In this document: positions 16,828 to 63,120 of the stretch, piece after piece
Layout: each line of letters starts with the position of its first letter
Position numbering within the stretch: the stretch's first letter is position 1
NCBI GenBank assembly: GCA_009780315.1
Contig: WRAH01000009.1
Coordinates: 13,516 to 77,515 of the forward strand
DNA from: Defluviitaleaceae bacterium
GTDB taxonomy: Bacteria > Bacillota > Clostridia > Lachnospirales > WQUN01
Direction: 5' to 3'
DNA: 64,000 nucleotides
Made by a program: the position numbers and the translations under genes
The notes under the pieces: model-generated
What the model was told of the DNA's origin: nothing
The model's input: only the letters and a program-made list of their open reading frames with translations
The model's database searches: none

Positions 16828-16980
16828 AATGGGTGGAAATTGAAGACAATATAAAAGCCCCAGACTAAGTGACCATAGTCTCGGGCTAAAATAGGCATCA
16901 TTGCATAAAGCACAATTTTATAAACACGAGCCTCGGCAGGATTTACGCACAGAAAATGCACCTGCTGTCTATGGCTTTGC
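16828..16980 (-). promoter_or_regulatory. Probable ribosomal protein L10 leader (autoregulatory 5' UTR)
   Basis: A roughly 150-nt structured 5' UTR lies between a sigma-A-type promoter and the rplJ SD. It includes the hairpin agcccgagact...agtctggggct followed by TTTTAT (plus-strand coordinates 16856-16887), as expected for the L10-leader attenuator. The Rfam motif was not verified. Confidence 0.5.
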
Positions 16981-16981
16981 C

Positions 16982-17010
16982 AGTATATACTATGTCTTAG
17001 AAAATGTCAA
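16982..17010 (-). promoter_or_regulatory. Sigma-A-type promoter of rplJ-rplL(-ppdK)
   Basis: Minus strand reads TTGACA (17010-17005), a 17-nt spacer, then TATACT (16987-16982). Confidence 0.65.
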
Positions 17011-22872: not shown

Positions 22873-23206
22873 ACAGAGAATACCCCCTAGGTTTAATTTT
22901 TTATTTTTCTCTTGCAAATCTTAAAATCCTATAAATCTTGGTTAAGGGCCCTCATGAACCAAAAATAAAATAGGCTATGTATAGAAGACCACAGGGGTCA
23001 CGAATACGTTACATACGTTTTTTAAAAAATTTATAAAAAATTTTATCATGCCCTAAAAAACGACACCAAATGTCCCGTTGCGGGCAATCATACAAAAACT
23101 TTATTTGAAGGTGAATAATATGGCATAAGTATATACACTTCAAATAAAAAGGGAAATGACCAATATGTAGCAATTTAATTTTTCCTTGTCTAAAAACAAG
23201 GCGAAA

Positions 23207-48458: not shown

Positions 48459-48490
48459 CTTCCGCTTTGGGAAGTGTTTTTTTATTTTTC
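48459..48490 (+). terminator. Second plus-strand hairpin plus long T-run (back-up terminator)
   Basis: cttcc-gctttg-ggaag followed by tgtttttttattttt. It overlaps the stop codon of the convergent ECF gene. Confidence 0.4.
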
Positions 48491-50878
48491 CTCGACTAAT
48501 CCATATTTGATTTTGATTCTGTCGAGTTTTTCCAACATTGGGCGGGATATGATGAGTAGAAAAAAGACTGTCGCCACAGCGTGAATGATATCAAATGGAA
48601 AACCCATGATGTATGACATCAAAAACATTTCTATTGTAGGGTTGGGTTGCCACATGAGTACACTGGCAGGGTTCATGATACCGCCATAGATTATCAAAGT
48701 GGCTAAACCACCAAAAATGGCAAGAGGAATAGGGCTGGATTGCAGTAATTTTTTGTGAAATAATATCCCTGCAAGGAAGCCTATCATACCAAAGGCAAAC
48801 ATTTGCCAAGGTGTCCACGGGCCTTGACCAAAAAACATATTACTTACAAACGCAGTCACCGCACCCACTAAAAATCCTGATTCCCCGCCAAAGGCCACCC
48901 CTGCAATGATGACAATAGCAATCACAGGCTTAAATTGGGGCAACATAAAAAATGCAGACCTGCCTGCAACAGCCAATGCACAAAGTACTGCAATGACTAC
49001 AATTTCACGGGCTTGGGGCTTTCGGCTTTCAAAAATCATCATAAAGGGAATCATGGTTTGCAAGATAATGAGCATGGAAATAAAGTAAAATCTACGGTCG
49101 TCAAAAAAATATATGCCTGCATAAATGGTGATGGGGATAGACAGCAAAATTAAAGCGGCTGCCAGCATGGTACGTTTTGGCAACGGAGGTTTGGGTGGAT
49201 TGCTGGGGGGGATATATTGGGTTTCATTGTTTACATATGGTTTTGCAGGAGTATCATCAGGGGGATTAGATTTCGTGGTTGTTGTCAGTTTCCCTCCCAG
49301 GGCAGTGATGATATCTTGGGGGGTTACGGCTTCGGGCAAGACTTGACGCGCCATACGATTAGCCCCTGTGGTATAAAAGCTATTTCCGCTAAAAAATGCC
49401 TTGGGGGTGTTTTCAGCCACAATATCACCGTCAAAAAATAATGCACAACGGGTTGCATATTCTGCACAAAATTCTATGTCATGGCTTACCATAATAATTG
49501 CCGTGCCGTCTTGTGCCAACTTTTGCAGGATACCTGCAAATATTGCCTTGTATTCTGCGTCCAACCCTTTGGTTGGCTCGTCCAGCAACAGGATTTTGGG
49601 CTGGAGCAATAATACTTTTGCCAGTGCCGCCCGTTGTTGCTCTCCCCCTGACAGGTCATACGGGTGACTGTCCAGTAAGTTTTCTAAGCGGCATAACTTT
49701 ATCATTTGGGTAAATGCTGCTTCTTTTTTTGCAGGCAATACTTCCTGCAAGTCTTCCCGCAAAGTTTTTGCTACAAATAATGTTTGGGGGTTTTGGGGCA
49801 AAGCATAAACAGGCTCATGGGTATGTATTTTTCCACGGTATGGTGAATAAAGCCCTAATATGAGGGACAGGGTTGTGGTTTTGCCTGTGCCGTTTCCGCC
49901 TAAAATGGCTGTAATTTCACCATAGTTGGCTTGAAAGTTTAGCCCTTTCACCACATCAGGGAGGTTCTTTTCATATTTGAACCATAGGTCTTTTACCGTC
50001 ACAGCCCTTTTGCCTGTAGTCATTGGAGGGGGTGCGGTGGATGTTTGAATGATTTTTTGGGTGTTAAGCCAGTCTGCGCCCTCTCGTACCGTGATTGGGC
50101 ATTGGTCTTTTCCATCACAAGCCGCCCATACACGCATGGGGGTTGGCATGGCTAGAAACATGCTGTGGGCTTTGGTACGCAAGATTGTACCTATTTCAGC
50201 AGGTGTGCCATGGGCTATCATTTGCCCTTTTTCCATTACGATGACTCTGGTAGAAAGGGAAAGCACTTCCTCCAGCCGATGTTCTGTTAAAATAACCGTT
50301 GTGCCTAGTTCGCGGTTTATTTTGCCTATCATCCCTAGAAACTCCCCTGCGGCAATAGGGTCTAACTGGCTGGTTGGCTCGTCTAAAATAAGCACAGAGG
50401 GTTGCAATGCCATAATAGACGCAAGGGCTAAAATTTGCTTTTGTCCACCAGACAATTCTGTTACAGATTTGTGAAACCAAGATTGTATGCCAAAAAAACT
50501 GGCTGTTTCTGCAACACGCAAGCGGATTTCTGGGGTTTTCATGCCTAGGCTTTCCAGCCCAAAAGCAAGCTCATGCCAGACCTTGTCCGTCACTATTTGA
50601 TTTTCCGGGGATTGAAATACGAAACCAATTTTTGCAGCCCCATCCCTTGGGGATAATTCCTCCAGAGGGGTATTTTCAAAAAATATTCTGCCTGTTTTCA
50701 CCCCATGGGGTGTAGCCGATGGCTTGATATGCCTCAGTAAAGTTGTTTTTCCACAGCCTGACGACCCGCAAACCGTTATAAACTCCCCGCTTTTTATGGT
50801 CAAATTGACATTCAGCAAGGCAGGGTGTGGGCGGGTTGGATATGAAAATGTTAGGTTCTCGATTTTATACGTTTCCAT
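48482..50878 (-). CDS. ECF transporter fusion protein: ATPase (EcfA-like) + ATPase (EcfA'-like) + C-terminal S-component-like membrane domain
   Basis: ATG 50878 follows AGAGGA. There are two complete ABC cassettes (GSSGCGKTT / LSGGQKQILAL / LILDEPTSQLD and GGNGTGKTT / LSGGEQQRAAL / LLLDEPTKGLD). A P/T/N-rich linker follows, and then about 6 TM helices. Confidence 0.88.
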   Translation of the reverse strand: METYKIENLTFSYPTRPHPALLNVNLTIKSGEFITVCGSSGCGKTTLLRHIKPSATPHGVKTGRIFFENTPLEELSPRDGAAKIGFVFQSPENQIVTDKVWHELAFGLESLGMKTPEIRLRVAETASFFGIQSWFHKSVTELSGGQKQILALASIMALQPSVLILDEPTSQLDPIAAGEFLGMIGKINRELGTTVILTEHRLEEVLSLSTRVIVMEKGQMIAHGTPAEIGTILRTKAHSMFLAMPTPMRVWAACDGKDQCPITVREGADWLNTQKIIQTSTAPPPMTTGKRAVTVKDLWFKYEKNLPDVVKGLNFQANYGEITAILGGNGTGKTTTLSLILGLYSPYRGKIHTHEPVYALPQNPQTLFVAKTLREDLQEVLPAKKEAAFTQMIKLCRLENLLDSHPYDLSGGEQQRAALAKVLLLQPKILLLDEPTKGLDAEYKAIFAGILQKLAQDGTAIIMVSHDIEFCAEYATRCALFFDGDIVAENTPKAFFSGNSFYTTGANRMARQVLPEAVTPQDIITALGGKLTTTTKSNPPDDTPAKPYVNNETQYIPPSNPPKPPLPKRTMLAAALILLSIPITIYAGIYFFDDRRFYFISMLIILQTMIPFMMIFESRKPQAREIVVIAVLCALAVAGRSAFFMLPQFKPVIAIVIIAGVAFGGESGFLVGAVTAFVSNMFFGQGPWTPWQMFAFGMIGFLAGILFHKKLLQSSPIPLAIFGGLATLIIYGGIMNPASVLMWQPNPTIEMFLMSYIMGFPFDIIHAVATVFFLLIISRPMLEKLDRIKIKYGLVEEK

Positions 50879-51744
50879 ATTAAATCCTCTTTTACATTGA
50901 CGATTAAGGGAAATGCGCAAAGCATAAAATGGACAATAAATAACACAACCATTAGCCCTTCATGGGTGTAAAAATGCCTAATGGTGGGAAAATATCTAAA
51001 GCGGTACACCTCAAAAACCCCACCTGTGATGATTGCAATAAGGCAAATTAAAATATAAATCAGCCCATATATATCACGGCTGGTGAAGCGGAAAATGGAA
51101 AATGCTGTGCGCTTGGGTAAACCATACCCCCGCCCTTTCATACTGTCTGCTGTCTCAATGGCGTTTTCCAGTGACCATGTAACCATGATGGATAAAATGC
51201 GCATACCATGCCGCGCCCGCTGAAAGACATTTCCCCTGGAAACATCCCGCCCAATGCATTTTTGTGCATTTGCCACAATTTTAATTTGGGCGCGAAACCG
51301 AGGAACAGCCCGCAACGACATGGAAAGTATCAACGAAAGGGCGGGAACTACCCGCCCAAGCAAATAAATCAATTTATCACTGGTCATGACTGCATTAAAG
51401 CATGAAAACCACACAATAACGGTGACAATCACCACTGCTGCCGCAATACCAAACATGGTTGACTCAAGAGTAAGTGGGTTTCCATTGGGCAAATGGGCTA
51501 AAATCGTACTGCCTTGGTGGTTAAAAAGCGGGTTCATGCCTGCGGCAACAATCATCATTGGCAACATAAAAATACCCATCCGTAAGGCTTTTTTTCCATA
51601 TAAATACAAGGCATAGACCATTGCACACAGCATAGAAATGCCTAAATTCACAGGATGCATGAAAAACATAGCCAGTCCAATAACTGCCGCAAAATAAAGT
51701 ATATTCACCAGAGGATGAAAGCTTGAAAATACGTCACATTCCAT
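50851..51744 (-). CDS. ecfT: ECF transporter transmembrane (T) component, CbiQ family
   Basis: 297-aa polytopic protein with the coupling-helix region ARHGMRILSIMVTWSLENAIETADSMKGRGY. It overlaps the ATPase gene start. Confidence 0.85.
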   Translation of the reverse strand: MECDVFSSFHPLVNILYFAAVIGLAMFFMHPVNLGISMLCAMVYALYLYGKKALRMGIFMLPMMIVAAGMNPLFNHQGSTILAHLPNGNPLTLESTMFGIAAAVVIVTVIVWFSCFNAVMTSDKLIYLLGRVVPALSLILSMSLRAVPRFRAQIKIVANAQKCIGRDVSRGNVFQRARHGMRILSIMVTWSLENAIETADSMKGRGYGLPKRTAFSIFRFTSRDIYGLIYILICLIAIITGGVFEVYRFRYFPTIRHFYTHEGLMVVLFIVHFMLCAFPLIVNVKEDLIWKRIKSRT

Positions 51745-51747
51745 GGT

Positions 51748-52557
51748 TTATTCTACCTGTTCTGCGCCTATATCACGTCCAAGGTCTACGGTATAAAGCC
51801 ACTCTACAATATCCCCTTCGCTTAAAAGATATTGAGACGACCCAAAATTGGGAAACCAGCCATTCACCCGATATTTCCAGCCAGAAAGAGGGCCTACATC
51901 ATATTCATACAAATTATTGATGGCTTCTATATACGCTGTATTAAAAGCAGGCGTAAACCGTGCCGCCATGTGTATACCTTCCTGTCTCGTTTCCCGCTGT
52001 AATATATCAAATACACTTTCCCCTTCCCAAGCCAATACTTGCCTTGGGTGCAAAATCCAGCCGTCTTCTGGTACAAGTTCGTGTTTGTCTCTGTGCAATA
52101 AATGCATATTATCCAAAATCGTATGGGCGCGCACAGATAAAGTCACGTAAAATGAACCATCATCTACAACAACATAGGCTGGCTCAACCTCAACAGGGAT
52201 GATTATTTCGGGCGTTTCTTCAAAAGTTTCTTCATCTTCAATTATTTCAAGGCTGGCTATATATTCGTATTCGTTTTGTGAGGGTTCATCCTGTAGAGTG
52301 TCATCCTGTGTTTCCGCTTCGGCAACGAGGGTTTCTACTTCTAATGGTAGAAACTCCGTAATCCCTTCGGAATGATATAAGTCGGGAATTGTGACGGGGG
52401 TTGCCATTGTTTCAAGGGGAGAGGATTCTGCCAGTTCTGGTGCTGGTGCATTTGTACTATGCACCCCACCCCAAAACCATGCAGTCACCAGCAAGGCAAC
52501 AATGACAACACCGCCTACAATTTTAGGCACAATATTAGTTTTCATAAGCTTCTTCAA
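51748..52557 (-). CDS. Membrane-anchored DUF4430-domain protein (transcobalamin beta-domain-like)
   Basis: N-terminal TM anchor, an acidic linker, and a C-terminal DUF4430 signature LSGWKYRVNGWFPNFGSSQYLLSEGDIVEWLYT. Confidence 0.8.
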   Translation of the reverse strand: MKKLMKTNIVPKIVGGVVIVALLVTAWFWGGVHSTNAPAPELAESSPLETMATPVTIPDLYHSEGITEFLPLEVETLVAEAETQDDTLQDEPSQNEYEYIASLEIIEDEETFEETPEIIIPVEVEPAYVVVDDGSFYVTLSVRAHTILDNMHLLHRDKHELVPEDGWILHPRQVLAWEGESVFDILQRETRQEGIHMAARFTPAFNTAYIEAINNLYEYDVGPLSGWKYRVNGWFPNFGSSQYLLSEGDIVEWLYTVDLGRDIGAEQVE

Positions 52558-53521
52558 ACATATCGCTCATGTCATATAGCCATGTCATGCCATTGACAAG
52601 TCGCCAGTATGCAACCAGTGCATAAGCCCCTTGTTCTGTTGACATAGGGTCTATCATGTCATCTGAATTTGAGCGTCTAAACCCGCCGCTTTCTTCATCA
52701 AACCATTGTAATAGCCATTGTACATAAACCAAAGCTTCTTCTGCAAAGTCTTCCCCAAGGGCAGTGAGTGCCACAATCATTTGGGCAGTGCTTTCAGGGT
52801 CAGAAAAAGTTTGCCTGCGAAGCCAGTCAAGGGCAAGGTCAACTGCCATGCGCACTTCTGCGTTATCGTCATAATACTGCGCCAATGCTTGAACAACCAT
52901 GGACGTTGTGTCTATTTCCAGCCGACCGAAAGCCCATGTACCTGTTGGATTTTGAGATGCTAAAATCCAGTCTATAAAGTCCATGCTATCCCTTTCATGC
53001 GGTATTGCGTTTAGTGCAATCAGTGCGAAAGCGTCTGCGTTTATGGTCATGTTCAAGGCATGGCGTTCATCCACTGAAACAAATGTACTGTACACTGCCG
53101 TCAAATCCCGCCCGTTAAAGTCGGCCGCATTAAATCCAACAGAACCCAGTGCCAGTGCCAGCCGTTGAAAATCCGTCCAACGGCGCATTCCGCTTGGGAA
53201 AGTTCCCGCAGATGGCGGATGTTGGATGTTATGCCCTTCCCTAGTTAGCCTATCCACTTCCAAAAGCATACGTTCCACATCCGTAAGCCAACCTTGTACC
53301 CAAGCATCATCAGCAGTCACCCGCCCTGCACGTGCAAGGGCAAGTACAGCCCATTCCCCGCCGACAGAGCCGACAAGGGGATGGGGTGTCACTGAGTCAT
53401 AAATCCAGTCAAGGGAACGATACATTGCCGTTTCCCAATCGGGTATAGTATCTTCTGCTTGAACAGCTACAGGAACAATGAGCATGGTCAAAATCAATAA
53501 AAACGCTGTAAATTTACCCAT
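52535..53521 (-). CDS. Secreted alpha/alpha-barrel protein (prenyltransferase / squalene-oxidase repeat; transcobalamin alpha-domain-like)
   Basis: Signal peptide ...VAVQA-ED. Repeated helical-hairpin motifs (GGEWAVLALARAG, SQNPTGTWAF, DTTSMVVQALAQ, AQMIVALTALG, MSTEQGAYALVAYWR). Confidence 0.8.
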   Translation of the reverse strand: MGKFTAFLLILTMLIVPVAVQAEDTIPDWETAMYRSLDWIYDSVTPHPLVGSVGGEWAVLALARAGRVTADDAWVQGWLTDVERMLLEVDRLTREGHNIQHPPSAGTFPSGMRRWTDFQRLALALGSVGFNAADFNGRDLTAVYSTFVSVDERHALNMTINADAFALIALNAIPHERDSMDFIDWILASQNPTGTWAFGRLEIDTTSMVVQALAQYYDDNAEVRMAVDLALDWLRRQTFSDPESTAQMIVALTALGEDFAEEALVYVQWLLQWFDEESGGFRRSNSDDMIDPMSTEQGAYALVAYWRLVNGMTWLYDMSDMFEEAYEN

Positions 53522-53550
53522 GAATACCTCCTAATAATTTGTCTAACCTA

Positions 53551-56500
53551 TTATACCAGACTTTCCAGTGTTTCTTCTACCTTTGCACGGGTAATTCCAT
53601 TGTCTACATGCTGAATTTCGACAAAATCAAACCCGCCAAACTGTGCAAAGTTATTTAAAAGTATGGCAAAATGTTCGCTTGTCATATAAAGGTCTGGGCC
53701 AAAAGTGCCGTCACCAAAGCCATTGACAATACCATGATGTCTTGCCCATGCAATGGCTTGATAGTGAACATGTGATGTTTGTACATCTGTAAAAGCAGCA
53801 GGGGTACTAACGATTGGCGAGCCTTCAAATGCCCAAAGGATTGCAACAATCATTGCCCGTGTCATGATTTCATATGCATACAATGTTTCTTCTAACACAT
53901 CATTAGGATGTTCAACCGCTTCAATTTCGTCAGCGTCTTCACCAATATAGTCCACAAAGAATAATGAAAAATGCGTGGTTGAGAAAGTCATAAATCCCCT
54001 GTGATACAGTGAATCTTCCATGACGCTAATATTGCCGTCATCATCAAGATGGAACACTTTAAGCAAGTGATGATTAGAAAAACCTATCGGCAGTGTATAG
54101 GGTATGGTAATGGTAATAGTCCCTTCAAAATAGCGGATATATTCACCATCAATCATGATTGAAAGTGCGATAATAACATTATCACCCACAATTTCTCTTT
54201 GGACTGGGCTTAGATTATGATAGGCTACCATTTCTACAATAAGTCTTACTGTTGTATCATCATTTAATCCATATGCCAATCCTGCCAAAGTATCCACATC
54301 TAAGACGATAACCGAAATATAAGATTGAAGGGTTAATATCATTTCATTTGCTATAAGGGCATTGATTGATTCCATAATTAAATTTATCTCAATACTGACG
54401 GCTTCCTCTGTGTGGGTTACATGGATAATAATATTTTCTGCGGCTTCTGTTAAAGCTTCTGCAATGACTGAATCAATCAATGCAGGACTGACTTCCACCA
54501 CAGCTATGCCATCCACAACATCCGCTTCAATTTCTACATTGACGGAAGGTACATTCGGCACAGGCATAACAACAGGAGGTACAGGGACTAAAGGTGTTGC
54601 GTCAGACCCAGTCACATCACCACCGCCAATATCATCACCAAGTTCACGGGTATATAACCACGCTACAGTATCCCCATCGCGCACGGGGATAGATATTGCA
54701 CCTGCCTGTGGAAATGCACCGTTGATACTCACCATCCAACCAGACCCAGGGCCATGGTCAAATTCCGAAAGTCCTTCAATACGATATACATATCCGCCGC
54801 TACTGCCTATATTCAGTCCTGTTCTGTGAAGGAAACTATAAGCGGTTTCATTTGCATTGAGCGTAAGCGTATCATGAAAGAACGTGCGGTTTCCATGGGG
54901 GTCACGTACACTAATGGTTGCCGTACCAAGGGTTGGAGGGGTTTCACCACCCCCGCCACCGCCCCCACCGCCAGAAAGGTTTGGGGTGCTAACAGAAGGC
55001 AGGAGTTGGAGGGTTCTTGCCATACTTGCATCGTTCATACTATATAGTGTATCCATGCCATTGATAAAACGGTAGTACGCCACAAGGGCATAAGCGCCTT
55101 GTTCTGTAGACATTTGGTTAACAACACCACCGCCTGTCATGCCTTCCCAATACCATTCGGCACTTCTAAAGCCACCTGTTGCAGTGTCAAAATACCCCAG
55201 CAATCCAATGACATATGCAGACGGATTGTGTCCAGCTCCAGTGAGGGCAACAATCATTTGGGCATAATTTTCTGGGCCTGATAAAAATTGACCAGGTGTT
55301 ATCCAGCTGACTGCATTATTCACTGCTGTATTCACGGCACTATGACTGCGGAAAGGGGCAAGTGCTTGAATTGCCATTGACGTATGGTCAAAATCCCCCC
55401 AATCAGCACTCCATGGTGAAGGCCAAGAACCATCGGGTAATTGCTCTGCCAAAATTGCATCAATATATTGCTGTGTATTGATACTATAATTGCCAGCGTT
55501 TATGGCAAGCAATGCAAAAATATCCCCATTCAGCGGATTGTCCCCTGGACGGTTTGCAAATGCCGCCGTTAAGTCATGTCCTGAAAAATTTGATGCGTCT
55601 ATCCCCAAGGACGTTAGCGCAAGTGTAATACGCGCAAAATCTGTCAATGAAGTGCTGGATGCAAGGGGAAGCGCAGATGTTAGATTGGATATATACATGT
55701 CATACCATATATCATCATCAATACCTGCCCTAGCCAGTGATAGTACAGCCCATTCGCTAGAAATTCCAGGGTTAGGCGTATCTAACCGTAACCAACGCAA
55801 TGCATCATACATCATGGTTTGCCAGCGGGGTGCAGATGCTAATGGTATCAACCCATTGATTGATGCTGTCAGCCTTATGCGAACAGGGTCAACCACTGCT
55901 TGTGTTGCGTCTAAGGGTAATGAAAGTGCTTCATTGAGTGAGGTTTGCATTTCTGCCCAACTTGTAGGCGTGTAATTTGTCCTATTCCTTTGTTGCGCTT
56001 CTGCAATGGCTTCATTCAGTGCAACCCTAAAAGGCGGCAAAATAGATACAAGCCCATCTTTTGCAGCCAGCAACACTGCCAGTGCATTGTCAACATCAAT
56101 TTGTGTAGCACTTGCATTGATTACAACACTTTCAGCACTTGTTAATGCTGTCATAAACACGACCCAACTTGCTGGGGTGTATAGTGCAAATGAAAGAAGT
56201 CTCCCTTCAGTAATGGCCGCTTGTAGTGTTGAAAATCTGACTACAGTTAAATCAGGCTGCCATACCCATGTTTCACCTGCAACATCTGCATTAGGTACAG
56301 CAATAAGTCCCGCAGATGTAAATACACGATTTCCTTGAGGGTTTCCAATAGTGCCAGTCCCTACATTTGCCCAATACCCAGTATAGTATGGGTGACTGGG
56401 AATGGCAGGGAGATTAGCATTGATTTTAAACTCAAAATCAGTACCAAGTGTGATTTCACGCAAGGCAGTGGTATCTTGGAACGCATTTGCCATGGTTGGT

Positions 56501-58596
56501 TGCAATACGTTTGCAATAAAAACAGTGGAGGATGTGTTCCAACCTGATAAATTTACACGTTCTAAGCGGTTTGCATTTTGGAAGATAGCATTCATATTGG
56601 TTGCGCGGCGTATATCCCAACCTGATAAATCTAAACTTTGCAGACTTCTTGCGTCTGTAAACATATTGTTCATCAGAAGATTGGCAGTGATATTTCCACC
56701 CACATCCCAGCCTGACAAGTTCAATGATTCTAACGCCCATGTGTTAGCAAATGTACTTGCAAAGTTGGTGACACGGCTTACATCCCAGCTTGATAAATCT
56801 AAGCTTGTTAAGCTTCGGGCATTGCCAAATGTCATGCTCATGGTGGTTACATTACGTGTATCCCATTGGGCTATATTTAAGTCTGACAATGCCCATGTAT
56901 TGGAAAACGTACTGCTTAAATTGGTGACATTGCTTACATTCCAACCAGACAAATTTAAACTAGTCAAACTTTGGGCATTTGAAAAAGTTAAAGACAATGT
57001 ATTCACACTGCTTGTATCCCAATTGGCAATATCAAGACTGGTTAAGCTGTGTGCGCCAGAAAACATTGACCCTAAAGTTGTAACATTGCTTGTATTCCAA
57101 TGGCTCATACCTTGAATACTTACCAAGTTTGGATTTGTCGCAAACATATTTGCCATGGTCGTTACATTGGAAGTGTTCAGATATTGTAAACCCTCTATGG
57201 TTCTAACATTTGACAAACTACTAAACAAATGTTGGACAGAGTTGGACGAACCAACGGTAAGGGGGGCTTCAACAATAACACTGGTAATATTCATGCGGTG
57301 TGCGTGCCATGGAATGCTTGCATTTGCAGCAGTAGAACCTGCAACAATGCCACCGCCAATGACTAATCTGCCATCATTATATAACCGCCACGGTGCGCCG
57401 CCAGCAACTGAAAATGTGCCGGAATGAACAACACCTACAGAAATAAATCTGACATTAAACCTTTGCATGGCAATGTTGTTGCCAAACACAGTAACCGTTG
57501 CATTATATATTCCCACAGGAAGTCCGCTGTTGGGTGTTACAGTAAATAAATCATTCCCTCCTGCGGCAATGGCTGAAAGGGTTGATACATTTATTGTAAA
57601 AGCACTGGCATGTGTGCCAGAAAGTGCAATGGTAAGCCCACTTGTAGCCCTAGAACTTGTATTAGACACAGTAACATCAAGGGGGCTATCGGATGAAAAT
57701 ACATACAAATCAGTCACCGACAGCGCGATTTCTGCTGGTTCAGGTAAAACACCTGTTTCCAGTGCTGAAAGGGCGGCAAAGATTTCTCCAGTGGTTGCCA
57801 CAGGATTTATAATCACATCCAGTGCATGTTGGAATGCAGGCGCACTTACACCAGGTAAAAATAATGCACGAATCAAAGCATCTTTGCTTTCATGCACATA
57901 AATAGACGGCCCAAACCATGGGTCTACCGATAGCCCAAGACAAGTGCCTATGATTGAAAACATCCAACGCACAACATCTCCGTCACTTAATACCTCAACA
58001 CCTGCGCCAACATTACCAATGTTATGATTGACGGCAAACATCCAGCCTGACAAAAAGTTCATACCAAAATCATTTGACCCTATAGACCCATTTGGGTTAG
58101 GGTTAGGATTCCACATGGAAGCCATTGCATTTGCATTTATGCCATCCATGATAACCTGCGGTGGATTTGCAATGTCTGGAAATAACCCATGAATCCTAGT
58201 GATACCAGCAGCCCCGCCCTCATGTGTAAGACCATGTGCCGCCAGCACTTGCATTGTGGGCACCATTGCATTTGAACCTATAGGCACACGCACTTGTGTA
58301 GGTTCTACATAAAATCCATGACCTAAAGTAAAACCTTCAATGCTGACATAAACCGTAATATATTCCGTTGCCAGTGGAGCAACAATAACTTCTACCGCAG
58401 GGGGGCTTGCTATTTCAATGTCAACATCTACATTAAAATCATTATCGTTATTTTCATACTCCACTTCATATACATCTGCAAACAAAGATGTATTCGGCAA
58501 AAGACCAAATGCCATAACGAACGCAACAAGCAATGCAAGTATCCGCGTTTTTTTATTTTTGTTTATCAAAACAAACATCCTTTCTTTCATTGACAT
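53551..58596 (-). CDS. 1681-aa SLH-anchored surface protein. Domain order: signal peptide, DUF4430, Ig-like, about 10 BspA-type 26-residue LRRs, helical (FIVAR-like) modules, alpha/alpha barrel, poly-Gly linker, DUF4430, unknown domain, SLH
   Basis: Motifs in order: GWMFAVNHNIGNVGAGVEVLSDGDVVRWMFS; LTSLDLSSWDVSRVTNFASTF repeats; SSEWAVLSLARAG...MSTEQGAYALVAYYRF; GGGGGGGGG; SGWMVSINGAFPQAGAISIPVRDGDTVAWLYT; and a C-terminal FTDVQTSHVHYQAIAWARHHGIVNGFGDGTFGPD (SLH). Confidence 0.9.
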   Translation of the reverse strand: MSMKERMFVLINKNKKTRILALLVAFVMAFGLLPNTSLFADVYEVEYENNDNDFNVDVDIEIASPPAVEVIVAPLATEYITVYVSIEGFTLGHGFYVEPTQVRVPIGSNAMVPTMQVLAAHGLTHEGGAAGITRIHGLFPDIANPPQVIMDGINANAMASMWNPNPNPNGSIGSNDFGMNFLSGWMFAVNHNIGNVGAGVEVLSDGDVVRWMFSIIGTCLGLSVDPWFGPSIYVHESKDALIRALFLPGVSAPAFQHALDVIINPVATTGEIFAALSALETGVLPEPAEIALSVTDLYVFSSDSPLDVTVSNTSSRATSGLTIALSGTHASAFTINVSTLSAIAAGGNDLFTVTPNSGLPVGIYNATVTVFGNNIAMQRFNVRFISVGVVHSGTFSVAGGAPWRLYNDGRLVIGGGIVAGSTAANASIPWHAHRMNITSVIVEAPLTVGSSNSVQHLFSSLSNVRTIEGLQYLNTSNVTTMANMFATNPNLVSIQGMSHWNTSNVTTLGSMFSGAHSLTSLDIANWDTSSVNTLSLTFSNAQSLTSLNLSGWNVSNVTNLSSTFSNTWALSDLNIAQWDTRNVTTMSMTFGNARSLTSLDLSSWDVSRVTNFASTFANTWALESLNLSGWDVGGNITANLLMNNMFTDARSLQSLDLSGWDIRRATNMNAIFQNANRLERVNLSGWNTSSTVFIANVLQPTMANAFQDTTALREITLGTDFEFKINANLPAIPSHPYYTGYWANVGTGTIGNPQGNRVFTSAGLIAVPNADVAGETWVWQPDLTVVRFSTLQAAITEGRLLSFALYTPASWVVFMTALTSAESVVINASATQIDVDNALAVLLAAKDGLVSILPPFRVALNEAIAEAQQRNRTNYTPTSWAEMQTSLNEALSLPLDATQAVVDPVRIRLTASINGLIPLASAPRWQTMMYDALRWLRLDTPNPGISSEWAVLSLARAGIDDDIWYDMYISNLTSALPLASSTSLTDFARITLALTSLGIDASNFSGHDLTAAFANRPGDNPLNGDIFALLAINAGNYSINTQQYIDAILAEQLPDGSWPSPWSADWGDFDHTSMAIQALAPFRSHSAVNTAVNNAVSWITPGQFLSGPENYAQMIVALTGAGHNPSAYVIGLLGYFDTATGGFRSAEWYWEGMTGGGVVNQMSTEQGAYALVAYYRFINGMDTLYSMNDASMARTLQLLPSVSTPNLSGGGGGGGGGETPPTLGTATISVRDPHGNRTFFHDTLTLNANETAYSFLHRTGLNIGSSGGYVYRIEGLSEFDHGPGSGWMVSINGAFPQAGAISIPVRDGDTVAWLYTRELGDDIGGGDVTGSDATPLVPVPPVVMPVPNVPSVNVEIEADVVDGIAVVEVSPALIDSVIAEALTEAAENIIIHVTHTEEAVSIEINLIMESINALIANEMILTLQSYISVIVLDVDTLAGLAYGLNDDTTVRLIVEMVAYHNLSPVQREIVGDNVIIALSIMIDGEYIRYFEGTITITIPYTLPIGFSNHHLLKVFHLDDDGNISVMEDSLYHRGFMTFSTTHFSLFFVDYIGEDADEIEAVEHPNDVLEETLYAYEIMTRAMIVAILWAFEGSPIVSTPAAFTDVQTSHVHYQAIAWARHHGIVNGFGDGTFGPDLYMTSEHFAILLNNFAQFGGFDFVEIQHVDNGITRAKVEETLESLV
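56430..57180 (-). repeat. About 10 in-frame 75-78-bp coding repeats (BspA-type / DUF285-type 26-residue leucine-rich repeats)
   Basis: Recurring pattern ...W(D/N)(V/T)S.V(T)(N/T)...(M/T)F....L.SL(D/N)LS.W... Confidence 0.85.
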
Positions 58597-58701
58597 GGGG
58601 TTTTATCTCAAACCCCGCCGCTACTTTGATTTTTTTAGATTTTTTTACTATGCTATCCAATGCCAAGCACCCCTCCTTTTCATGAAAAATCCCTGAGAAT
58701 C

Positions 58702-58736
58702 AAAAAAACACGCTCCGTTTATGTAACGGAACGTGT
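58702..58736 (-). terminator. Riboswitch expression-platform terminator
   Basis: Minus strand reads ACACGTTCCGTT-ACAT-AAACGGAGCGTGT followed by TTTTTTT. Its 5' arm can alternatively pair with GAACGGAGCAATGTGT at the aptamer 3' end, which would form an antiterminator. Confidence 0.75.
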
Positions 58737-58779
58737 CCTAATAACAAGGTTAAAATACCCTTTTAAAATAAAACACATT

Positions 58780-58935
58780 GCTCCGTTCGGGGAAGCCATG
58801 TAGTGCCGCAACGTATCTGACTTATCAATAGCGGCAAATTGCCGCATCGCATCACAGTGACCCGCTCGCAGGGAATCTCACCCTATTCCGCTCCAAATAT
58901 TTATAAATACTAAAAATATCTTGGCAGCAGCACCA
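58780..58935 (-). promoter_or_regulatory. Probable cobalamin (B12) riboswitch, short or atypical variant
   Basis: The minus strand shows the conserved blocks in canonical order: GGTGAGATTCC (L4-type loop closed by AGGG/CCCT), GGTCACTGTGA, and a B12-box-like AAGTCAGATAC. In addition, 5' GGTGCTGC pairs with GCGGCACT just after the B12 box. A terminator lies downstream. No covariance-model search was run. Confidence 0.6.
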
Positions 58936-58990: not shown

Positions 58991-60202
58991 TTACCTAAAA
59001 TATTGCATTGGGTCAACCGGCACATTATTACGACGAATTTCAAAGTGAATATGCGGGCCTGTAGACATTCCTGTCGAGCCTACATCAGCAATATGCTGAC
59101 CACGTGTTACCGCTTGCCCTGTCACTACACGATTGACAGAATTATGGGCATATAAGGTACTATACCCATTACCATGGTCGATAATAACTGTCAGACCAAA
59201 TCCACTACTCCACCCTGCAAAACGTACATATCCGTCTGCGGCGGCAACAAGGCGTGTCCCTGTAGGAGCCCCTACGTCAATACCTTGATGCATTCTGTTT
59301 ACACCAAGTATAGGGTGTCTACGCATACCAAAGGGGCTGGAAATGCGGCTATGGGTTGGTATTGGCCAGGCAAACTGTCCGTTAAAATTATTAAGCCGTT
59401 CTAAGTTGGCATTGTGTGCCTCACGGCTGCGCTGTGCGGCAAGTGCCGCCGCTTCGTTTTGATACCTAGCCCGATAAATACCATACTGGTCATCCAGTAA
59501 ACGTCTATCATAGTCTAACACTGCAATCACTGCCGCTAACCGTTCTGCATCTTCAGACAGGGCGTAAAGCCATACTTCCCGCTCTTCAAGTGCCGCTTGC
59601 AGTTCAACTTGTGTTGCTTCTTCTAAAAATCTTAAATCATGAAGCATGTTTTCTTCCCGAAACAATGCGTCTGCATTGGCAATAATTTGCTCTTCTGCGT
59701 CTTCAATTCGTGTAATCATATCACGGTCAAACTGAGCCACTGTTTGCACGATTTCCATTCGCGCAAAAAAATCACTAATACTTGTTGCGTCAAAAAGCAC
59801 TTCCAGCCAACCTGTTGGCCCTTGCATGTACATGGCCCTTAAACGCGCACGGAATACTTCATATTGCAAGTCGCGCTCTTCATGGGCTAATGCTAAAGCA
59901 TGATATGTTTCTTCTCTTCTGGATTCTGTCATCACCAGTGACATTTCAATGCTTTCAAGCCGCTCTGCCGCATCCATAAAACGCTGGTCTAGCACTTGCA
60001 TTTCTGCCACAAGTTCAGACATCTCATGTTCTGTTCCTGCAAGTAAGTTTTGGTTTTCGCTTAACTCACGCCTGACAGCGTCCCGTTGTGCTTCAATTTC
60101 ACGAAGCTGCTCACGTGTTTGCTGGGTTGCGCCAACTGTTAATACAGAAATAAGGGATAATATCACTGCAAGTATGATTAAAACCATTGATTTCTTTTTC
60201 AT
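58991..60202 (-). CDS. M23-family metallopeptidase with an N-terminal coiled coil (EnvC-like architecture, catalytic residues intact)
   Basis: Signal or anchor segment, a roughly 250-aa coiled coil, HQGIDVGAPTGT (HxxxD) and GPHIHFEIR (HxH). Confidence 0.88.
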   Translation of the reverse strand: MKKKSMVLIILAVILSLISVLTVGATQQTREQLREIEAQRDAVRRELSENQNLLAGTEHEMSELVAEMQVLDQRFMDAAERLESIEMSLVMTESRREETYHALALAHEERDLQYEVFRARLRAMYMQGPTGWLEVLFDATSISDFFARMEIVQTVAQFDRDMITRIEDAEEQIIANADALFREENMLHDLRFLEEATQVELQAALEEREVWLYALSEDAERLAAVIAVLDYDRRLLDDQYGIYRARYQNEAAALAAQRSREAHNANLERLNNFNGQFAWPIPTHSRISSPFGMRRHPILGVNRMHQGIDVGAPTGTRLVAAADGYVRFAGWSSGFGLTVIIDHGNGYSTLYAHNSVNRVVTGQAVTRGQHIADVGSTGMSTGPHIHFEIRRNNVPVDPMQYFR

Positions 60203-60215
60203 GCCTTAGCACCAC

Positions 60216-61919
60216 CTATAAAATTTCAATGCCAAAAATACGTTGCCCACGTGTACCGACGACTATCATGTTGCCAAAAATGGCAGGTGAAGCTTCCACA
60301 TTTGAGCCTAGATTTATTGTGTACAAAACTTCCCCTGTTGTGCCTTGAATCAAATGCATAACACCGCCAGAATCACTGACAATGATATAACTTGTACCAT
60401 CCTCTGTATACACTGCCACAGGGGAACTCCATCCCCAGCGCGGCATAATATTTTCCCAAACAATTTCTCCTGTAGTGCGGTTAAAAGCAGTAAGCGCACC
60501 ACTTCCGCCGCGCCCAATCACCATTGCTGTCCAAAAAATCACAAGGTCATCAATATCATGCTGTCCAATCACCGGCGTTGCGGTTACACCGCCATTCACC
60601 GCTGTATTATACACGCAACGATAGGAATATTCCCAAATAACTTCACCATTTGATGCATTTAATTTACGAATAAATGCAGACCCACCATGTCCTTGTAAAT
60701 CAACCTGTGTGGCAGTGTATAAATAAAGCTGTTGGGTAGCTTCACTCCATTCCAACACAATTGTACTATCTGTATCATCACCTGCATTAAATGCCCACAC
60801 AGGTTCAAGGGTTCTTAAATCTAAACACTGAATCATACCACTATTGTCGGCAAAAAATAAATAATGTCCAAAACCTGTTGGAGAGTTTTCAATGCCTAAT
60901 CGCCGTCCTGTTTGATGCCAATAGCGGGAAATCACAGGGTCGATAGCAATACTTGGGGTGGTTCTGTCAAAGTGTGTATTTAGCAAAATGCTGTATAGAA
61001 CCCCATTTTCGCCAGCTAAAATCATCCTATCATTCACAGAATCAAAAAGCGGGTTACTATCAAAAGCCCCCCAACGGCGCGGTGCAATACTTTCCATCCC
61101 GTTGATAAAAAACATCTCCGAACTATCAATTAACGAAAAAATATAATAGCCAAAACGATTGCCTGCTTGGTCCCCCTGCCCTACATATAAAATAGGGTAT
61201 CCCCGTGGGTCAATGGTGATTCCACCTTTAATGGGTACACCAACGCGAAGTGTATCGCGGGTAGGTTCGCCTGTAAATAAGTCAAAAAAATATACATTGC
61301 CATCCAATGCACCTTGAATAACCTCTACCAGATTAGGGTTGTCACGATGCTGTGGGTAAATATTCATAAGCTGTTGAATTTCAAAATCCCACTGAACAAT
61401 TGCTGGCTGTCCTGTCCAACCAACACCTGTCCAACGTCCTAAACTTCCTATATTTAAACTGTATCGTTGCGCTAATCTTTGCTCTGTTACATCAACCGTT
61501 CCCCATGCAGCACTATTGCGAAAATTGTTTCCGCGAAAGGTGGTAATGCCCGCCAATGCCGCATATGTATCAGGCATTCCAAAATGAATAGGATATAGTG
61601 AACCTTCAATCCTTGAATCAAAACTAAACCCTCTGACATTTGCAGGGTCTGTTTCAGGTGTGCTATGGGGGTGAAATAACGCCCATGGAGGTGGTGTTGG
61701 CTCTGGCGTGGGTTCTGGAGTAGGTATTGGCTCCGGCGTAGGGGTGGGATTTGGCGTAGGCATAGGAGTGGGTTCAGGCAAAGTATCCACCGTTGTTGCC
61801 AATACCACATCCCCCATTTCTTCAACATCACTTCTAAAATATAAAAAATAAACGCCGCCTGCCGCAATAGCCACCACAGCCAAAATTCCTACCATACTAA
61901 AAACTGTTCCTAAACGCAT
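60216..61919 (-). CDS. Membrane-anchored PQQ-like (BamB-like) beta-propeller repeat protein
   Basis: N-terminal TM anchor and a PT/PE-rich linker (PTPMPTPNPTPTPEPIPTPEPTPEPTPPP). Repeated motifs of the type G.V.W (NASNGEVIWEY, NRTTGEIVWEN, QGTTGEVLYTI). Confidence 0.8.
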   Translation of the reverse strand: MRLGTVFSMVGILAVVAIAAGGVYFLYFRSDVEEMGDVVLATTVDTLPEPTPMPTPNPTPTPEPIPTPEPTPEPTPPPWALFHPHSTPETDPANVRGFSFDSRIEGSLYPIHFGMPDTYAALAGITTFRGNNFRNSAAWGTVDVTEQRLAQRYSLNIGSLGRWTGVGWTGQPAIVQWDFEIQQLMNIYPQHRDNPNLVEVIQGALDGNVYFFDLFTGEPTRDTLRVGVPIKGGITIDPRGYPILYVGQGDQAGNRFGYYIFSLIDSSEMFFINGMESIAPRRWGAFDSNPLFDSVNDRMILAGENGVLYSILLNTHFDRTTPSIAIDPVISRYWHQTGRRLGIENSPTGFGHYLFFADNSGMIQCLDLRTLEPVWAFNAGDDTDSTIVLEWSEATQQLYLYTATQVDLQGHGGSAFIRKLNASNGEVIWEYSYRCVYNTAVNGGVTATPVIGQHDIDDLVIFWTAMVIGRGGSGALTAFNRTTGEIVWENIMPRWGWSSPVAVYTEDGTSYIIVSDSGGVMHLIQGTTGEVLYTINLGSNVEASPAIFGNMIVVGTRGQRIFGIEIL

Positions 61920-61950
61920 GATTTAAGTCCTCCATCCAAAATGTAAAAGG

Positions 61951-63120
61951 TTAATTTCCTTCAAAAAAGAAATTTATTGGATTTACAGGTTTGCCATTGA
62001 CATGTACTTCATAATGAAGGTGCGGAGTAGAGGCACGCCCTGTACTTCCAACATAAGCAATAACATCGCCTCGTGATACTTCTTGCCCAACATATACTAA
62101 ATTGACAGTATTGTGGGCGTATAGTGTAACAATGCCTATCCCATGGTCGATAAAAACAACATTGCCAAACCCATTGCGCCAACCAACATAAGTGACTATG
62201 CCACCTCCGCCTGCCATAATAGGCGTACCTGTAGGTGCAGGAACATCTACACCATAATGATGTCGGATACTTCCATCAAATGGGTCATTGCGAAAACCAA
62301 AAGGCGATGTAATCACTCCGCCTTTGATAGGAAAAAGCGTTGGAAAGTTGCGCAAATAAATATCAATGCTTTCCAAATGACTTTCAATACTGTCATGTAA
62401 TATCCGCTGTACGTACAATTCATCATTGAGTATGGCAATGCGGTGAATGACCGTCTCAAGAGAAATTTCACTATGTTCAATTAGACTCATTAGCCCAGCT
62501 GCAACAATAGGTTCACTTGTGTGAAGTTCAATTAAAGCATATTGTGCGGCTTCAAGGGCTGGCAGTATATCTTCAACGCCAGGGATAAAGGTGCGGGTTC
62601 TAAGCCGTGCAATTGTTTCTTGACGCGTTGATTCAAGATTGTCAAGCATATTTTCAAGATAGTTTATATGCGCCCAAATATCACCTAATTCATATTGCTG
62701 ACGTAATAATTGATGATTAACTTCCTGCTGTGCCAGTGCTTGTTCTTCGTTTAGCTGTTCACTAAGTTCTGCAACGGTACCCAGAAGTTCGGCTTCTTCT
62801 TGTGCAAATACCATTTGAAATTCATCAAATGCATCCCTAGCTTCACTGAGTTCCTCATAAAATTGACTGATGACATGAACAAAATAATGACTTCTCAAAA
62901 ATAATCCAGCAATCGTAAGCACTATCACAAAAATAGCAATGGCTATACCATGAAATACTGTACGTGGCATACGTAAACTTTTAACCGACTCAACTGCATT
63001 AGAGGGAACTATCATAATTGAAATATATTTCATCTGTTTATGAGAGTTTTTATTGATGAGTTCACTAGCCTTTTTTATCGCCGGACGCGATGCTTGGGAT
63101 TTTTTCCAAAATTGCACCAC
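61951..63120 (-). CDS. M23-family metallopeptidase with a TM anchor and coiled coil
   Basis: TM segment FHGIAIAIFVIVLTIAGLF, a coiled coil, HYGVDVPAPTGT and TPHLHYEVH. Confidence 0.88.
   Translation of the reverse strand: MVQFWKKSQASRPAIKKASELINKNSHKQMKYISIMIVPSNAVESVKSLRMPRTVFHGIAIAIFVIVLTIAGLFLRSHYFVHVISQFYEELSEARDAFDEFQMVFAQEEAELLGTVAELSEQLNEEQALAQQEVNHQLLRQQYELGDIWAHINYLENMLDNLESTRQETIARLRTRTFIPGVEDILPALEAAQYALIELHTSEPIVAAGLMSLIEHSEISLETVIHRIAILNDELYVQRILHDSIESHLESIDIYLRNFPTLFPIKGGVITSPFGFRNDPFDGSIRHHYGVDVPAPTGTPIMAGGGGIVTYVGWRNGFGNVVFIDHGIGIVTLYAHNTVNLVYVGQEVSRGDVIAYVGSTGRASTPHLHYEVHVNGKPVNPINFFFEGN

Follow-up and report, generated by a model that had tools for sequence, protein, structure and literature searches.

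The 64,000-nucleotide stretch of Defluviitaleaceae bacterium contig WRAH01000009.1 analysed here (positions 13,516 to 77,515, referred to as the window) contains an operon on its minus strand which encodes three putative extracytoplasmic binder proteins, built from the two domain types known from transcobalamin, together with an importer of the energy-coupling factor (ECF) type, and which is preceded by a structured leader RNA. We regard it as an operon for scavenging and importing corrinoids, i.e. compounds of the vitamin B12 family, by means of tiered binders whose fused and split copies are old paralogues, and assign a probability of about 60% to this reading. The analysis established the paralogy of the binder modules, their domain architecture, the transcobalamin-like fold, the parts of the ECF importer, the synteny of the locus and the structured nature of the leader. 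From its upstream end, the operon is composed as follows:

58780..58935, minus strand: leader RNA aptamer, candidate divergent cobalamin-clan riboswitch (Rfam match below gathering score, conservation, covariation)
58697..58739, minus strand: intrinsic terminator (expression platform), a 15-bp stem with a downstream U run, kept in the leader alignment
53551..58596, minus strand: giant surface protein of 1681 amino acids (aa), with a hydrophobic N-terminus and a signal peptide at residues 1-40
52535..53521, minus strand: secreted stand-alone barrel of 328 aa (split alpha), with a signal peptide at residues 1-22 (VQA|ED) and no S-layer homology (SLH) repeats
51748..52557, minus strand: membrane-tethered DUF4430 protein of 269 aa (split beta), consisting of a transmembrane segment, an acidic linker and DUF4430
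50851..51744, minus strand: EcfT, transmembrane coupling subunit of 297 aa (best PDB sequence match EcfT 5d3m_D, E 1.6e-9)
48482..50920, minus strand: EcfA-EcfA'-S fusion of 812 aa, with two ABC ATPase domains and a C-terminal S-component

Binder proteins and paralogy of their modules

The three binder open reading frames (ORFs) of 1681, 328 and 269 codons all lie on the minus strand, and their positions matched exactly those given in an earlier note on this DNA, which had described the same two modules as being present both fused within the giant and split into two downstream genes. The giant is composed of the following parts:

57928..58368, minus strand: residues 77-223, N-terminal solo DUF4430 (beta) domain (Pfam; local hidden Markov model at residues 104-223; BLASTP E 7e-7)
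56497..57738, minus strand: residues 287-700, immunoglobulin-like (choice-of-anchor D) domain and DUF285/PARCEL leucine-rich-type repeats
55837..56259, minus strand: residues 780-920, two FIVAR-like helical repeats (Pfam FIVAR E 1.9e-5, below cut-off)
55021..55839, minus strand: residues 920-1192, alpha/alpha-toroid barrel, the alpha domain of the fused module (BLASTP, AlphaFold2, Foldseek)
54619..54933, minus strand: residues 1222-1326, DUF4430, the beta domain of the fused module (Pfam E 4.9e-19, BLASTP, AlphaFold2, Foldseek)
53917..54579, minus strand: residues 1340-1560, conserved domain "Cdom" of about 220 aa between the second DUF4430 and the SLH region
53554..53889, minus strand: residues 1570-1681, C-terminal SLH (cell-wall anchoring) region of about 110 aa (Pfam SLH)

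The barrel is joined to the second DUF4430 domain by a Gly-rich linker at residues 1193-1221. Pfam recognised DUF4430 (PF14478) in two stretches of the giant (E 4.9e-19) and in one of the 269-aa protein (E 6.2e-13). The repeats in the N-terminal half were assigned as DUF285 by Pfam (E 1.5e-41) and as PARCEL repeats by NCBIfam (E 2.5e-45), next to a match to choice_anch_D with E 0.0018, and the FIVAR-like repeats were also found by BLAST in related giants. The "Cdom" did not match any Pfam family at E values up to 10, and the domain survey detected it in most related giants, including some without SLH. The SLH region scored 35 bits with Pfam against a cut-off of 20.8 and contains one full motif at residues 1602-1641.

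The barrel and DUF4430 modules of the giant and of the split genes are true paralogues, as the earlier note had claimed for the barrel and the 328-aa protein and for the second DUF4430 domain and the C-terminus of the 269-aa protein. BLASTP aligned residues 923-1189 of the giant with residues 27-320 of the 328-aa protein at 39% identity and 55% positives (E 3e-50), and residues 1268-1328 with residues 208-268 of the 269-aa protein at 46% identity (E 1e-13). In the comparison with shuffled controls proposed in the same note, the observed Smith-Waterman scores were reached by none of the 300 shuffles, and the z-values amounted to 69.7 for the pair of barrels, 23.2 and 11.8 for the second and first DUF4430 domains of the giant against the 269-aa protein, and 6.8 for the two DUF4430 domains of the giant against each other. 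The N-terminal DUF4430 domain indeed has no adjoining barrel, as noted before; it is 34% identical to the 269-aa protein over residues 176-221 of the giant (E 7e-7) and is itself conserved, being present in many giants and represented by a clade of 17 such domains.

Fold of the fused module

We modelled residues 915-1330 of the giant with AlphaFold2, using an alignment of 76 relatives, and obtained a mean predicted local distance difference test value (pLDDT) of 85.8 and a predicted template modelling (TM) score of 0.76, with most of the barrel above a pLDDT of 90. When this model was compared with the PDB by Foldseek, the 15 best matches were full-length structures of transcobalamin, haptocorrin and intrinsic factor with E values of 2e-9 to 4e-7 over about 450 aligned columns, and terpene cyclases trailed at about 1e-3. 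Taken half by half, the module reached Foldseek TM-scores of 0.67 with the alpha domain of intrinsic factor and 0.64 with the beta domain of transcobalamin, and its beta half matched the DUF4430 structure 3u7z from Ruminococcus gnavus with a TM-score of 0.63. Of the earlier proposal that these proteins represent a transcobalamin-like binder, the structural part is thereby supported, the barrel and DUF4430 of the fused module forming a transcobalamin-like alpha-beta pair in the AlphaFold2 and Foldseek analyses.

The likeness hardly extends to the sequences. Neither the barrel of the giant nor that of the 328-aa protein matched any Pfam family at E values up to 10, except for a weak match to Prenyltrans at 13.9 bits, and neither of them matched the eukaryotic cobalamin-binding Pfam family. 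A sequence profile reached haptocorrin (4kki) marginally with E 0.0066. As modelled, the fused module folds like an animal B12 carrier and is not a member of that family at the sequence level.

The split barrel and the tethered DUF4430 protein

The 269-aa protein starts with a transmembrane segment at about residues 10-32, followed by an acidic linker of about 95 aa (residues 36-128) and the DUF4430 domain at residues 131-266 (nucleotides 51760-52167), and the start of its gene overlaps the end of the gene for the 328-aa protein. Hundreds of relatives were found for the latter, the closest of which share 60-67% identity with it and derive from metagenome-assembled genomes (MAGs) of Defluviitaleaceae and from termite-gut metagenomes. 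Most of these are about 547 aa long because of added C-terminal SLH repeats of about 220 aa, as observed among the closest relatives (P0002-P0029), which are missing from the copy in the window. Because the 328-aa gene stops right after the barrel and overlaps the DUF4430 gene, we assume that the window copy has lost its anchor cleanly.

The most informative relative is P0071 (L091:4526-6022), a stand-alone secreted protein of 498 aa encoded outside any ECF operon, which represents a natural fusion of a split-type barrel with a split-type DUF4430 domain. Its barrel shares 50% identity with the 328-aa protein along the full length, and its DUF4430 part shares 55% (E 7e-53) with residues 117-269 of the 269-aa protein. 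By Rosetta-stone logic, this fusion implies that the 328-aa and 269-aa proteins would belong to one working unit or clamp, and it is the best available evidence arguing for such a joint action. The overlapping stop and start codons and the invariable adjacency of the split genes would likewise fit a stoichiometric complex. A Foldseek search with an AlphaFold model of P0071 again returned B12 carriers first.

Conservation of the operon in related loci

We surveyed 90 loci, which were collected by contig look-ups and by a metagenome scan with alignment; a scan of genome contigs with a single protein yielded two loci from Defluviitaleaceae MAGs. The domain survey showed a conserved order of the unit, starting with the giant and followed by the barrel protein (usually with SLH), the transmembrane-anchored DUF4430 protein, EcfT and the EcfA-EcfA'-S fusion, and this synteny recurs on dozens of termite-gut contigs. 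Among the dereplicated loci, 41 show which gene precedes the split pair. The giant holds both a barrel and DUF4430 in 22 of these (15 complete, 4 cut by the contig end and 3 reading into the split barrel without a stop codon), and only DUF4430 in another 16, although 5 of the latter are incomplete and may hide a barrel. Two loci are without a giant, and one giant was too incomplete to be classified. Because fused and split copies occur together in 22 of the 41 loci, we consider their coexistence to be a recurrent and maintained state rather than a recent event or a peculiarity of the window.

Some giants deviate from the common layout. The giant of locus L056 (L056:191-8710) is about 2840 aa long and carries two consecutive barrel-DUF4430 modules in addition to the N-terminal DUF4430. 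In four loci (L039:3497-10975, L063:7037-10951, L076:7346-10861 and L070), the frame of the giant runs into the "split" barrel without a stop codon, which may reflect real fusions or effects of assembly or sequencing.

Leader RNA

The leader is made up of a closing P1 helix, whose two strands are UGGUGCUGC and GCGGCACUA, a hairpin that is optional, a core (GGAAUAGGGUGAGAUUCCCUGCGAGCGGGUCACUGUGA ... AUAAGUCAGAUACG) and a second hairpin resembling P13. It is the most conserved DNA of the locus, with about 80-84% identity over about 125 nucleotides in at least 36 distinct loci detected by nhmmer, the proteins of which are only 40-65% identical. It always precedes the leading gene of the unit, with one copy per operon, and was also found upstream of genes for stand-alone barrel-DUF4430-SLH proteins. 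The consensus retains the cobalamin riboswitch signatures GGUGAGAAUCC, CACUGU and AAGUCAG.

Compared with the Rfam family AdoCbl (RF01482), which has a gathering score of 50, the leader in the window gave a full-length match of 18.3 bits, and the whole model was also covered by those of L069 (L069:6190-6333; 26.1 bits, E 0.0041) and L014 (L014:1779-1923; 31 bits, E 2.9e-4). The latter two lack the optional extra hairpin and score higher, and the other families of the clan gave overlapping weaker matches. RNAalifold predicted 25 pairs for the aligned leaders, which were paired in 97% of cases across the sequences and of which 13 showed compensatory changes; these values were reached by none of 500 shuffles, and slid controls gave 4-7. 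The P1 helix was absent from this prediction because MAFFT had misaligned its 5' strand, and a search sequence by sequence revealed extensive covariation between the sequences in this helix.

The leader shares the core signatures, P1, the P13-like hairpin and the terminator platform with Rfam clan CL00101 (Cobalamin, AdoCbl and AdoCbl-variant), but differs from it by scores of 18-31 bits, by an altered J6/3 region with GGGUCACUGU instead of CCCGCCACUGU, and by the optional hairpin that follows the 5' strand of P1 and precedes the core. In the window, the 15-bp terminator stem and its U run were located at 58739-58705. The 5' arm of the terminator may form an alternative helix with the 3' side of the P13 region, which would constitute an antiterminator. 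We read the leader as a divergent cobalamin-clan riboswitch that probably acts as an off switch.

The ECF importer

A dedicated importer of the group I-like ECF type is encoded together, comprising EcfT, two ATPase domains and an S-component. The 297-aa EcfT contains multiple transmembrane segments and was identified via PDB sequence matches alone, since none of the Pfam or NCBIfam models recognised it. The 812-aa protein matched Pfam ABC_tran twice as well as ECF-ribofla_trS (PF07155) and ECF_trnsprt (PF12822), the S-component models scoring above their cut-offs, and its ATPase domains were assigned to ECF_ATPase_1/2 by NCBIfam. The S-component occupies about residues 590-812 (nucleotides 48485-49153), and its closest solved match is the cobalamin S-component CbrT (6fnp_A) with E 1e-9 over the full length, followed by the next S-component at 0.013. 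Fusions of EcfA, EcfA' and S of about 820-1030 aa are also kept across the related loci.

Proposed scavenging pathway and its ligand

Because a leader of the cobalamin clan, a transcobalamin-like fold and a CbrT-like S domain coincide in this operon, a corrinoid is the most likely substrate, and we would put this part of the interpretation on firmer ground than the pathway as a whole. The riboswitch-like leader and its terminator would most likely keep the operon switched off when corrinoid is plentiful. The three putative extracytoplasmic binder units are made from two transcobalamin domain types, the alpha/alpha-toroid barrel and the DUF4430/SLBB beta domain. The first unit is the SLH-bearing giant with one barrel-linker-DUF4430 module and a solo DUF4430 at the far end, the second the secreted stand-alone barrel, and the third the DUF4430 domain carried on an N-terminal transmembrane helix and a long acidic tether. 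The fused module and the solo beta domain of the giant would catch corrinoid at or beyond the wall and pass it to a clamp formed near the membrane by the separate barrel and the tethered DUF4430, which in turn would deliver it to the S-component for uptake powered by ATP hydrolysis. We infer the identity of the ligand, the formation of the heterodimer and the direction, or even the existence, of the hand-off.

A relay from the wall-bound giant via the secreted barrel and tethered DUF4430 to the ECF importer is plausible. The earlier note had proposed such a two-tier arrangement with one distal and one proximal binder, and the anchors do differ accordingly, with SLH on the giant, a transmembrane segment and acidic linker on the 269-aa protein and a signal peptide only on the 328-aa protein. 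The distinction is blurred by the split barrel itself, which bears SLH in most relatives and has lost it in the window copy. More tentatively still, one may envisage a multi-tier corrinoid relay across the Gram-positive wall that consists entirely of paralogous transcobalamin-like units, with a clamp deliberately divided into a free alpha and a membrane-tethered beta subunit so that it could open to load the S-component, controlled by a previously unmodelled riboswitch subclass whose altered core might select a particular cobamide; we rate this extended scheme as doubtful.

The giant might instead serve as an extracellular reservoir or a device for sequestering the ligand from competitors, or form part of an adhesin, leaving uptake to the split pair alone. 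Stand-alone barrel-DUF4430-SLH relatives outside ECF operons bear the same leader RNA, giants are mosaic proteins in which the barrel is dispensable (16 of the 41 loci have giants with DUF4430 only), the PARCEL/DUF285 repeats in the giant of the window are typical of surface and adhesion proteins, and a surface B12 binder of Bacteroides has been proposed to act as a reservoir (bioRxiv 10.1101/2025.07.01.662609). The giant is nevertheless the first gene of the riboswitch-controlled unit in most loci, for which a shared pathway is the simplest explanation. We consider the reservoir alternative unlikely. Reservoir and uptake roles of the giant are compatible and do not exclude each other.

Several findings weigh against corrinoid scavenging by tiered binders. 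SLH-anchored wall proteins usually carry three SLH motifs at one terminus, and the wall anchoring of the giant is uncertain because only one full motif was recognised. Superposition of the whole modelled chain on holo-transcobalamin gave TM-scores of 0.43-0.49 and root-mean-square deviations of 9-10 Å, hence the model does not reproduce the closed, ligand-bound clamp. In the model of P0071, the barrel was predicted with confidence and the DUF4430 part had pLDDT values of 35-55, and we drew no conclusion on the interface because of this poor prediction of the beta domain. At gathering scores, an Rfam search of the window and of 10 related loci did not report a riboswitch for the operon. The S domain scored 38 bits with the NCBIfam model ECF_S_folT_fam (cut-off 60), which is about as good as its match to CbrT, so that the latter does not settle the specificity. 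Elsewhere in the window we saw a dcw cluster, permeases of sugar ABC transporters and M23 peptidases, and found no genes for B12-dependent or B12-salvage functions. Finally, the sole experimentally studied operon of this type, lsa1836-1840 of Lactobacillus sakei, is linked to haem and not to B12.

The latter case leads to a further alternative, in which the same machinery would import haem or another tetrapyrrole in place of a corrinoid. Verplaetse et al. (bioRxiv 10.1101/864751) proposed that exported alpha-like and beta-like proteins of L. sakei form a heterodimer scavenging for the S-component; these separate transcobalamin-like proteins and their ECF operon were tied experimentally to haem uptake, and the S-component was reported to be without cobalamin-binding residues. 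By the architecture described, the counterparts in the window are the genes for the 328-aa protein, the 269-aa protein, EcfT and EcfAA'S, but the L. sakei operon lacks a giant with a fused copy and has a separate S gene. The ambiguous specificity of the S-component in the window, for which a folate-family model scores similarly, leaves room for such a ligand. Against this, the only matches of the leader RNA are to the cobalamin riboswitch clan, CbrT is the nearest S-component of solved structure, and the fused module has the fold of B12 carriers. We regard a haem-type ligand as improbable.

Origin of the fused and split copies

To place the modules, bootstrapped neighbour-joining trees of the barrel and DUF4430 domains were calculated from Kimura-corrected distances. 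The split barrel of the window falls within a 100% clade of split barrels from the same operon elsewhere; these orthologues are 60-72% identical to the 328-aa protein, compared to 39-43% for the barrel of the giant. A bipartition with 96-99% support has 30 of the 33 giant barrels on one side and 68 of the 75 split barrels on the other. At support values of 63-84%, the barrel of the giant clusters with the giants of L048 and L069 and with stand-alone proteins of the barrel-DUF4430-SLH type that are about 656 aa long (P0121-P0124) and share 42-44% identity with the fused module over 96% of its length. The DUF4430 domain behind the barrel of the window giant falls, with weak support, next to the corresponding domains of these stand-alone fused proteins. 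Because both halves of the module group with these proteins, it was, judged by the trees, inherited already fused.

Most other giants, including that of L004, contain a barrel of another lineage, a 100% clade of 14 members including P0103, and in all, at least two additional barrel lineages occur in the giants of other loci, some of which have no barrel. Judging from these trees, giants have repeatedly gained or lost barrel-DUF4430 modules. All 57 split membrane-anchored DUF4430 domains fall into one clade (76%), and the 17 N-terminal DUF4430 domains of giants into another (60%). The fused and split copies are thus old paralogues of distinct lineages which were retained together.

The earlier note had suggested a gene fission or fusion event between the neighbours in the window, by which the fused module and the adjoining split genes would derive from one another. 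Such a recent local event could account for the adjoining genes, the common domain types and the 39-46% identity, and fusion or fission is known in the family from P0071, which combines a B-type barrel with a D-type DUF4430, and from the four loci in which the giant ORF continues into the split barrel (L039, L063, L070 and L076). The trees do not support it: the 328-aa barrel is much closer to its split orthologues than to the barrel of the giant, the 100% clade of these orthologues is separated from the giant barrels at 96-99%, the split DUF4430 domains have a clade of their own, and the barrel and DUF4430 of the giant both cluster with the stand-alone barrel-DUF4430-SLH proteins. We consider this origin very improbable and retain the view of old paralogues.

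The reading of the barrels as enzymes of the terpene cyclase or prenyltransferase type rather than binders, as suggested by some database names such as "terpene cyclase/mutase family protein" for the relative P0103 and by a sequence-profile match to squalene-hopene cyclase repeats (E 7e-9 over about 60 residues) and the weak Prenyltrans match, was rejected as hardly credible because the giant and the 328-aa protein both carry signal peptides for secretion, the DxDD-type catalytic motif is degenerate (EIDTT in the 328-aa protein, DFDHT in the giant), and the B12-carrier fold match of the whole module beats the cyclases by five to six orders of magnitude in E value, besides the consistent partnership of the barrels with DUF4430 and ECF genes.

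Relation to known systems

Systems of this kind were already predicted in 2007, and the window represents a well-resolved and unusually complete example rather than a new principle. Burroughs, Balaji, Iyer and Aravind (2007; PMC1796856) defined the SLBB superfamily, whose transcobalamin-like members (= DUF4430) are secreted or surface proteins in bacteria, often joined to an alpha/alpha toroid on either side as well as to surface domains such as FIVAR. According to the same paper, their operons often encode a further SLBB paralogue along with a CbiO-like ATPase and a membrane protein resembling CbiQ; B12 scavenging was predicted, and the carriers of animals were suggested to have been acquired from Gram-positive bacteria. 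All of these points recur in the window (SLBB, surface location, toroid, FIVAR, ECF genes and a paralogous SLBB protein). The 2007 paper, which is confined to prediction, does not describe a fused alpha-beta protein together with a separate alpha and a tethered beta protein in one operon, nor SLH anchoring, paralogue lineages or a leader RNA. A full-text literature search turned up no further paper that connects transcobalamin-like proteins to ECF transporters, and mentions of DUF4430 in publications are very rare. The present analysis adds that the fused and split copies are distinct old lineages retained together, that a natural fusion of the split pair exists (P0071), that the operon family can be mapped in termite-gut Defluviitaleaceae, and that it carries a conserved cobalamin-type leader RNA.

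Transcobalamin, intrinsic factor and haptocorrin of animals share the alpha6/alpha6 barrel, the flexible linker and the DUF4430 beta domain with the fused module, but are only 11-15% identical in sequence, and the orientation of the domains in the model is unlike that in the holo structures. Unlike the animal carriers, the bacterial modules sit in wall- or membrane-anchored proteins. Animals likewise use paralogous cobalamin carriers in succession. On the side of the importer, ECF-CbrT of Lactobacillus delbrueckii (PMC5997447, PDB 6FNP) is the closest known system, CbrT being the closest solved relative of the S domain and its EcfT the best match for the 297-aa protein. It belongs to group II, with a shared ECF module and no extracytoplasmic binders, whereas the S-component of the window is fused to both ATPases in a dedicated operon.

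The surface B12 binders BtuG, BtuH and BtuJ of Bacteroides resemble the window in concept, by placing several surface binders upstream of a transporter, and this is an analogy only. The same concept is known from the Isd haem relay of Staphylococcus, again as a mere analogy, with several surface binders ahead of a membrane transporter. The folds of the Isd and Btu proteins (NEAT domains; beta-propeller and DUF4465 proteins) are unrelated to those of the window binders.

Extracellular capture of scarce B12-type cofactors by Gram-positive bacteria is poorly understood, and to our knowledge the general description of ECF transporters is that they do not rely on soluble binding proteins. The operon family therefore offers a test set consisting of a fused module, a naturally split clamp, the P0071 fusion, a dedicated ECF module and a corrinoid-type leader. 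It raises the questions of whether bacterial relatives of the animal carriers bind corrinoids, whether they hand them over to an S-component, and which ligand the divergent riboswitch recognises, and it bears on the proposal that animal B12 carriers came from Gram-positive bacteria (PMC1796856).

Other features of the window

Directly upstream of the leader RNA, at 58991-63120 on the minus strand, two M23 peptidase genes surround a gene for a PQQ-like beta-propeller protein; the first of these peptidases contains a PcsB-type coiled coil, and an operon link is not evident. The sole Rfam match at gathering score in the window is a ribosomal protein L10 leader at 16842-16992 on the minus strand (RF00557, 59 bits). 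A second very large ORF of 1948 aa at 17071-22917 on the same strand contains SHIRT domains (Pfam E 9e-40) and presumably codes for another surface protein.

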